The notes below the pieces were generated by a model, which saw only the letters and a program-made list of their open reading frames with translations, was not told the origin of the DNA and did no database searches. The position numbers and the translations under genes were made by a program. Below are positions 636-691 of a DNA stretch of 8,139 nucleotides, piece by piece. Each line of letters begins with the position of its first letter. The first letter of the stretch is position 1. Source of the DNA: a virus (taxonomy: Duplodnaviria; Heunggongvirae; Uroviricota; Caudoviricetes); the IMG/VR virus record IMGVR_UViG_2534682295_000017. One strand, 5' to 3'.

Positions 636-691
636 AAAAAGGGCGGACATCAGTTCATGGGCAAACAGATGCCGCCAAACGTCACCAGAAA
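636..691 (-). ncRNA. dicF: DicF-like small RNA with intrinsic terminator
   Basis: Minus strand reads UUUCUGGUGACGUUUGGCGG CAUCUGUUUGCCCAUGAACUGAUGU CCGCCC UUUUU. The first 20 nt match the DicF 5' end as I recall it, and the 3' end is a GGCGG/CCGCC stem plus U-run. It lies about 170 bp upstream of dicB, as in Qin. Exact ends are approximate. Confidence 0.6.

Follow-up and report, generated by a model that had tools for sequence, protein, structure and literature searches.

The dicB operon of prophage Sp9

The window analysed here, i.e., the whole 8,139-nt stretch of viral DNA in IMG/VR record IMGVR_UViG_2534682295_000017, matches Sp9, a prophage of E. coli O157:H7 strain Sakai, at 100% identity over its entire length, and it matches the corresponding region of strains EDL933 and 86-24 equally well. 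Its gene order is that of the K-12 dicB operon (a dicA-like gene, ydfC, dicF, dicB and ydfD), with protein identities of 61-94%. In the RefSeq gene annotation of Sakai and EDL933, the dicF position falls between ydfC and dicB in a dicA-type operon of a lambdoid prophage, which is the setting that characterises DicF. The operon and the parts of the small RNA are laid out as follows, with nucleotide (nt) numbers within the RNA counted from its 5' end:

90..281, minus strand: ydfD homologue (DUF1482), 94% identical to K-12 YdfD
278..466, minus strand: dicB, cell-division inhibitor protein, 89% identical to K-12 DicB
447..652, minus strand: leader from the terminator to dicB, matching Rfam STnc100 at 32.2 bits (below its gathering score of 47)
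636..691, minus strand: DicF-family small RNA, Sp9 allele, 56 nt including the U tail, recognised by its Rfam DicF match and its alignment to K-12 dicF
636..641, minus strand: intrinsic terminator tail, C plus U5, read from sequence and fold
642..676, minus strand: terminator hairpin (nt 16-50) with a GGCGG/CCGCC base, a CAUC.G/C.GAUG inner stem and the loop GCCCAU
647..671, minus strand: divergent inner hairpin cassette (nt 21-45), CAUCUGUUUGCCCAUGAACUGAUGU, where K-12 DicF has its pairing segment for ftsZ, pykA and manX
672..691, minus strand: single-stranded 5' seed and first stem bases (nt 1-20), identical to K-12 DicF
692..811, minus strand: upstream precursor region, with 109 of the 110 dicF-adjacent bases as in K-12
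1581..1799, minus strand: ydfC homologue, the operon's upstream gene, 94% identical to K-12 YdfC
2434..2841, minus strand: DicA-like helix-turn-helix repressor, the presumed operon regulator, 61% identical to DicA
2918..3145, plus strand: divergent Cro/DicC-like regulator, 82% identical to DicC

The STnc100 match begins within the 3' arm of the DicF hairpin. An equivalent leader precedes kil in Stx and Rac-like phages, where it also scores below threshold (28-37 bits), and several STnc100 copies are abundant RNAs in EDL933 (Neuhaus et al. 2017, PMC5331693).

Other features of the window lie apart from the small RNA. A hok/sok type I toxin-antitoxin locus occupies 7721-7870 (+), where the Rfam sok model scores 103.9 bits against a gathering score of 59; its toxin is the RefSeq hokD CDS at 7869-8024 (+). 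The early-right region of the prophage carries the virulence gene paa (an AcfC-family adhesin, 6774-7532, +), and just 5' of it is a frameshifted fimbrial-protein pseudogene (6081-6614, +) in the EDL933 annotation. Two plus-strand reading frames run opposite to the operon near dicF: an annotated hypothetical ORF of 77 aa (940-1173) between dicF and ydfC, and a mechanically called, putative ORF of 54 aa (657-821) that would be antisense across dicF. Finally, P1-like phages match the region upstream of dicF (query nt 1-86) at 76-81% identity (AF234173.1 for P1 and NC_050152.1 for P7), and the P1 record, AF234173.1, labels the matching stretch a 'dicF-like region'.

The dicF homologue at 636-691 lies on the minus strand, a point on which the earlier sequence-only reading of this DNA was silent, and reads UUUCUGGUGACGUUUGGCGGCAUCUGUUUGCCCAUGAACUGAUGUCCGCCCUUUUU. 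The 20-mer that forms the DicF 5' end occurs once in the window, with 0 copies expected from 200 shuffles. The Rfam DicF covariance model (RF00039) aligns to 641-690 (-) over its full length (model positions 1-52) with 43.5 bits and E = 3.2e-8, which is below its gathering score of 48 bits. At the gathering score, a default Rfam scan of the window reports only the sok RNA elsewhere, and genome annotation based on Rfam thresholds would overlook this dicF copy. The RefSeq records of Sakai and EDL933 leave the Sp9 dicF locus unannotated, and the sub-threshold score may be the reason; K-12-type dicF copies are likewise without annotation in the records examined for them.

The predicted fold of the Sp9 RNA is an interrupted hairpin of 13 bp with U5 behind it (-17.3 kcal/mol, z = -2.77; the K-12 DicF fold is -15.9 kcal/mol). 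The fold predicts a rho-independent terminator with hairpin and U tract, like the one at the 3' end of DicF, a stable RNA of about 53 nt. The interruption of the stem caused a simple terminator scan to miss it.

Comparison with K-12 DicF and predicted target pairing

The annotated K-12 dicF gene (NC_000913.3, 1649382-1649434) reads UUUCUGGUGACGUUUGGCGGUAUCAGUUUUACUCCGUGACUGCUCUGCCGCCCUUUUU. When it is aligned with the Sp9 allele, nt 1-20 and the CCGCCC-U5 end are identical, while nt 21-45, which in Sp9 read GCAUCUGUUUGCCCAUGAACUGAUGU, differ. The sequence-only reading had described exactly this arrangement, a conserved 5' 20 nt and terminator around about 25 divergent internal nucleotides; the DicF reference it relied on agrees with the annotated K-12 gene, and the Sp9 allele is not identical to that reference throughout. 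The unchanged 20 nt include the single-stranded 5' region UUUCUGGUGACGUUU, which is the seed that pairs with xylR. The junction UUAUCAA/UUUUCUGG, where the 5' end of K-12 DicF is formed, is also kept in Sp9; DicF is processed by RNase E (PMC9438474).

The differences are concentrated in the hairpin, with 10 in 28 aligned columns there versus 7 in 341 flanking positions (Fisher p = 1.6e-8), a pattern that uniform drift does not yield. The flanks of dicF are about 98% identical to K-12, and the downstream side has 6 mismatches in 190 nt. Further upstream, the spacer that separates ydfC from the precursor region of dicF is 85 nt shorter than in the K-12 Qin prophage owing to a deletion, with its junction at 810/811. 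Because the flanks are as well conserved as the seed, conservation of the seed does not show that the seed is used in Sp9.

In common with K-12 DicF (Qin prophage; RF00039), Sp9 dicF sits between ydfC and dicB, begins with the identical 20 nt, has GGCGG/CCGCC at the base of its stem and U5 as its tail, and is followed by the same leader. It lacks two elements of the K-12 RNA: a loop containing the anti-Shine-Dalgarno motif ACUCC and the 3' arm CUGCUCUG. Together, these K-12 elements pair with ftsZ, pykA, manX and the pchA coding region.

Genetic work has assigned ftsZ and pykA pairing to the 3' region of DicF and xylR pairing to its 5' end (PMC5069750). The manX pairing lies more than 20 nt inside the coding region (PMC7534054), and pchA is also paired within its coding region, at an anti-Shine-Dalgarno element (PMC7769764, PMC13138055). 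Regulation of xylR by the seed is Hfq-dependent, and mutants of the 3' region retain that activity (PMC5069750). Two such mutants, DicF9 and DicF21, no longer regulate ftsZ and still regulate xylR (Balasubramanian et al. 2016, PMC5069750); with DicF21, there is no filamentation and no toxicity (PMC5069750). The Sp9 RNA resembles these laboratory alleles in that its 3' region no longer matches ftsZ and its 5' seed is intact. They differ in kind, however: DicF9 and DicF21 are engineered substitutions, whereas Sp9 is a natural allele, known here from its sequence, in which the whole inner hairpin is exchanged.

We calculated pairing with an IntaRNA-like routine, in which loop energies from ViennaRNA and accessibility are taken together. 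Energy-based target prediction of this kind is approximate, and the routine recovers the published K-12 sites. Unconstrained RNAduplex runs on long targets had produced hybrids with giant loops and similar energies for both alleles, and the accessibility-aware calculation replaced them. The energies at the published sites (target position, paired DicF segment, energy for each allele) were:

ftsZ -28..-4, K-12 DicF nt 27-52: K-12 -8.7 kcal/mol, Sp9 -4.0 kcal/mol at the site
pykA -18..-1, K-12 DicF nt 26-42: K-12 -11.0 kcal/mol, Sp9 -5.3 kcal/mol at the site
manX +35..+52, K-12 DicF nt 36-53: K-12 -13.9 kcal/mol, Sp9 -3.2 kcal/mol at the site
xylR +10..+20, DicF nt 5-15: K-12 -13.1 kcal/mol, Sp9 -13.1 kcal/mol, duplex unchanged

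What remains for Sp9 at ftsZ and pykA comes from the seed alone, and at manX from a 5-nt contact of loop nt 30-34. The Sp9 3' region gave no interaction with ftsZ -28..-4 in the accessibility-aware calculation, and by this prediction the allele lacks the antisense match to the ftsZ ribosome-binding site on which division inhibition by DicF is based. An unconstrained duplex calculation between the 3' region and the ftsZ leader agrees: K-12 reaches -29.4 and Sp9 -17.0. The mean for shuffled sequences is -20.3, and the Sp9 3' region is equalled or outdone by 84% of them. The ftsZ and xylR leaders themselves vary little: an O157:H7 strain with the Sp9 allele has both at 100% identity, and in about 5390 genomes the identity is 99% or higher.

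For pchA, the duplex at +9..+46 falls from -27.7 in K-12 to -14.5 in Sp9, against a null mean of -16.5. When accessibility was taken into account, the K-12 site at +16..+38 appeared at -7.2 with a target context of -150..+200 and was absent with a context of -150..+100. Because the corrected result varied with context length in this way, we regard the loss of pchA pairing and activation in Sp9 as only probable.

The pairing of DicF with ftsZ, xylR and pykA was a calculation that the sequence-only reading had proposed, and its outcome is a predicted loss of the ftsZ and pykA sites with xylR unchanged at -13.1. The suggestion that the divergent segment could cost the RNA a subset of its targets is supported by the calculations, which predict that the sites in ftsZ, pykA and manX are lost together with the extended complementarity to pchA. 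Within the limits of the model, these pairing calculations, which covered known DicF targets, point to target loss only and give no sign of retargeting.

Related phage hairpins and distribution of the allele

The inner hairpin of Sp9 has close relatives outside dicF. In Stx phages such as Shigella phage 75/02 Stx and Escherichia phage PhiR5_2, and in a Rac-like group (vB_EcoS-666R9, vB_EcoS-683R6 and Sakai Sp10), kil is preceded by homologous hairpins with the same leader. These hairpins read GGCGG(A)CATC(A/G)G-loop-CTGATG(T/C)CCGCCC-T5, and the Sp9 3' arm, CTGATGTCCGCCC, is identical to their consensus. The leader that follows, beginning AAAGTGAATTTTGTGATG..., is common to Sp9 dicF and the kil-linked Stx and Rac-like hairpins. 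Sp9 carries this unnamed module, which in lambdoid phages lies upstream of kil or dicB: GGCGG-CATC.G-loop-CTGATG(T/C)-CCGCCC-T5 followed by AAAGTGAATTTTGTGATG.... The kil-linked elements differ from Sp9 in having other 5' regions, which lack GGUGACGUUU, and in preceding kil, not dicB.

By identity, the Sp9 hairpin is closer to that of 75/02 Stx (83%) than to that of K-12 DicF (74%). Scores from the Rfam DicF model form a gradient that descends from 72.5 bits (a K-12-type copy) through 43.5 (Sp9) and 39 and 34 (Rac types) to 29.5 (Stx type). The pattern CTGATGYCCGCCCTTTTTAAAGTGAA matches Sp9 exactly and is found at a minimum of 120 loci in IMG/VR, preceded by many unrelated 5' regions. The idea that nt 21-45 are drifted DicF sequence was considered and rejected, as they represent a common hairpin type of related phages. 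In the unconstrained duplex calculation, the kil-linked Rac-type and Stx-type hairpins gave -27.1 and -23.9 with the ftsZ leader (K-12 DicF -29.4; shuffled mean -20.3); their longer sequences may account for these values, or these elements may touch ftsZ too.

We assigned 240 loci to classes according to their 5' region, their hairpin type and the gene that follows. The K-12 hairpins in this sample were fetched by means of the DicF seed, which biases the following counts; the loci not included in them had no downstream match or an unclassified hairpin:

DicF seed, K-12 hairpin, dicB: 106/240 loci
Other 5' region, CTGATG hairpin, kil: 77/240 loci
DicF seed, CTGATG hairpin, dicB (Sp9 type): 21/240 loci
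Other 5' region, CTGATG hairpin, dicB: 11/240 loci
DicF seed, K-12 hairpin, kil: 2/240 loci (IMG/VR; a Rac-type kil replaces dicB)

The last two loci show that reassortment occurs between the small RNA module and the division-inhibitor gene that follows it. When K-12 hairpins with a base other than A at seed position 10 were sought, none lay behind an unrelated 5' region: all 23 matches were point variants of the DicF seed (GGUGGCG). Judged by these sequences, the K-12 hairpin is a specialised form tied to the DicF seed, and Sp9 is the DicF seed joined to a generic phage hairpin.

There are two ways in which this could have come about: either recombination made the Sp9 allele, or mutation of an Sp9-like ancestor made the K-12 hairpin. 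The near-identical flanks favour a recent exchange, as far as a sequence comparison can tell. Searches for the Sp9 loop returned no exact donor, and its central 24-mer occurs solely in the dicF context.

Of 5426 complete E. coli genomes, 290 contain an exact match to an allele-specific 48-mer, nearly always as a single copy, and the hosts listed are mostly O157:H7 and O55:H7, with one O103, and include Sakai, EDL933 and 86-24. The same 48-mer is also carried by 23 IMG/VR contigs and by Escherichia albertii NBRC 107761. A K-12-type 58-mer is found in 3969 genomes, which have 1-7 copies of it. Scans that took the seed, the central segment and the flanks as anchors found just two discrete hairpin classes behind the DicF seed, each with point variants, and no intermediates between them. 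Sub-variants of the Sp9 type include three IMG/VR contigs with a 1-nt seed deletion (UUUUCUGUGAC) and one contig with U45C (GAUGCCCGCC), a change also present in some Rac-type hairpins.

Proposed function and the other EHEC copies

Our preferred reading, to which we give a probability of roughly two in three, is that the Sp9 RNA is made and processed like K-12 DicF, acts on xylR through its seed and terminates before dicB, without ftsZ, pykA or manX function and probably without pchA function. Expression would start with transcription from the dicA-controlled early-left operon and end at the terminator hairpin, and the 5' end would be cut at the same junction as in K-12. The released RNA would then act in trans, presumably with the Hfq dependence of its K-12 counterpart, with nt 5-15 pairing with xylR and other targets of the 5' seed, and its hairpin would attenuate read-through into dicB. 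As for regulatory outcomes, repression of ftsZ, pykA and manX is not expected because nt 21-45 are replaced, and the RNA would probably be unable to open the anti-Shine-Dalgarno structure of pchA. The K-12 hairpin is a specialised one, with a loop and 3' arm antisense to the ftsZ ribosome-binding site, and Sp9 lacks that specialisation. We predict that Sp9 is a natural separation-of-function allele like DicF9 and DicF21, and that it would not cause filamentation.

On a different reading, the element has a role in cis alone: it would terminate or attenuate transcription of the early-left operon ahead of dicB, and its 5' fragment would have no function in trans. Related phages share the hairpin and downstream leader and their 5' regions vary freely, the seed is no more similar to K-12 than its flanks are, and low read counts have been reported for the EDL933 dicF copies in LB (PMC5331693), all of which would suit an element without a trans role. 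However, Hfq-dependent regulation of xylR by the same seed is proven for K-12 DicF and persists in 3'-region mutants (PMC5069750), and both the processing junction and the terminator tail are unchanged in Sp9. We consider a purely cis-acting element unlikely.

It is also conceivable that Sp9 still inhibits division by pairing with ftsZ through another region, or that its new loop and 3' arm have gained a new target. A weak alternative site does exist, between seed nt 5-15 and ftsZ +16..+25 (-5.0 kcal/mol), but this, the best that Sp9 offers, falls 3.7 kcal/mol short of the K-12 value and is not within the ribosome-binding site. In complementarity to the ftsZ leader, the 3' region is equalled or surpassed by 84% of shuffles, and the new segment is mostly locked in a more stable stem, with only a 6-nt loop exposed, so we think either version of this explanation very unlikely. 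Lastly, the notion that Sp9 dicF is a decaying, non-functional copy that has collected random mutations in a defective prophage can appeal to the pseudogenes elsewhere in Sp9 and to the sub-threshold Rfam score, but is hardly credible against clustered changes (p = 1.6e-8), a hairpin with better pairing than the K-12 one and with the widespread CTGATGTCCGCCC consensus as its 3' arm, a sequence invariant in 290 genomes and found also in E. albertii, and intact dicB, ydfC and ydfD genes alongside.

A loss of ftsZ and pchA function with the seed retained, as we propose for Sp9, bears on how DicF is counted in EHEC. There, DicF has been invoked for filamentation at low oxygen and for activation of the LEE through pchA, and reviews stress the presence of four EHEC dicF copies. 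In Sakai, six places are homologous to a 521-nt dicF region; five of these were located, and four are dicB-linked (Sp4, Sp9, Sp11 and Sp12). Sp6 and Sp8 of Sakai have no dicF or dicB region. The located copies other than Sp9 are:

Sp4 dicF, at about 1165.7 kb in Sakai, minus strand: seed AUUCUGGUGACAUUUGGCGG including G12A, K-12 hairpin with G38A, and an extra U in the tail
Sp11 dicF: K-12 type with one substitution, A39G
Sp12 dicF: identical to K-12 and adjoining ynfA, like Qin
Sp10: Rac-type hairpin upstream of kil, without the DicF seed

The Sp4, Sp11 and Sp12 copies share the operon context of Sp9, and only the Sp9 copy has the exchanged hairpin. In Sp4, the pairing calculation with G12A gives a weaker xylR duplex, -7.3 kcal/mol in place of -13.1. 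On this modelling, the four dicB-linked EHEC copies look functionally non-equivalent.

Sp9 dicF is very probably one of the copies that others have already counted. Two reviews citing Melson and Kendall 2019 (PMC7873438, PMC11774850) give four dicF copies for Sakai and 86-24. The accessible DicF literature does not mention the hairpin difference, which Melson and Kendall 2019 may describe, and the comparison by Balasubramanian et al. covered only dicF sequences more than 99% identical (PMC5069750). Neuhaus et al. listed four Rfam-11 DicF matches in EDL933 (AE005174), each with 0-118 RNA-seq reads in LB (PMC5331693); the correspondence of these matches to loci is uncertain, as a neighbouring sok hit would fit the arrangement of either Sp9 or Sp11.

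A broader interpretation, which we think could equally well prove right or wrong, is that ftsZ targeting resides in a specialised version of a generic prophage hairpin, and that lambdoid prophages exchange seed, hairpin and downstream gene (dicB or kil) independently of one another. The O157:H7 DicF paralogues would then differ, with Sp11 and Sp12 fully active, Sp4 altered in its seed and Sp9 retaining the seed function only, i.e., an effect on metabolism without a division block or pchA activation. If this is true, copy number alone overstates the DicF dose acting on ftsZ and virulence. With one copy lacking the region for ftsZ, pykA, manX and probably pchA, and another having an altered seed, the copies would not be interchangeable doses, and multi-copy deletion phenotypes would need allele-specific dissection.

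By itself, the Sp9 locus is of modest interest; its main value is as evidence for modular DicF-family RNAs and for functional differences among EHEC copies. It also illustrates how a trans-acting function may have arisen in the terminator hairpin of a mobile, modular prophage element. As a separate observation on gene location, pchA (ECs_1091) lies in the same prophage, Sp4, as the dicF copy with the altered seed.
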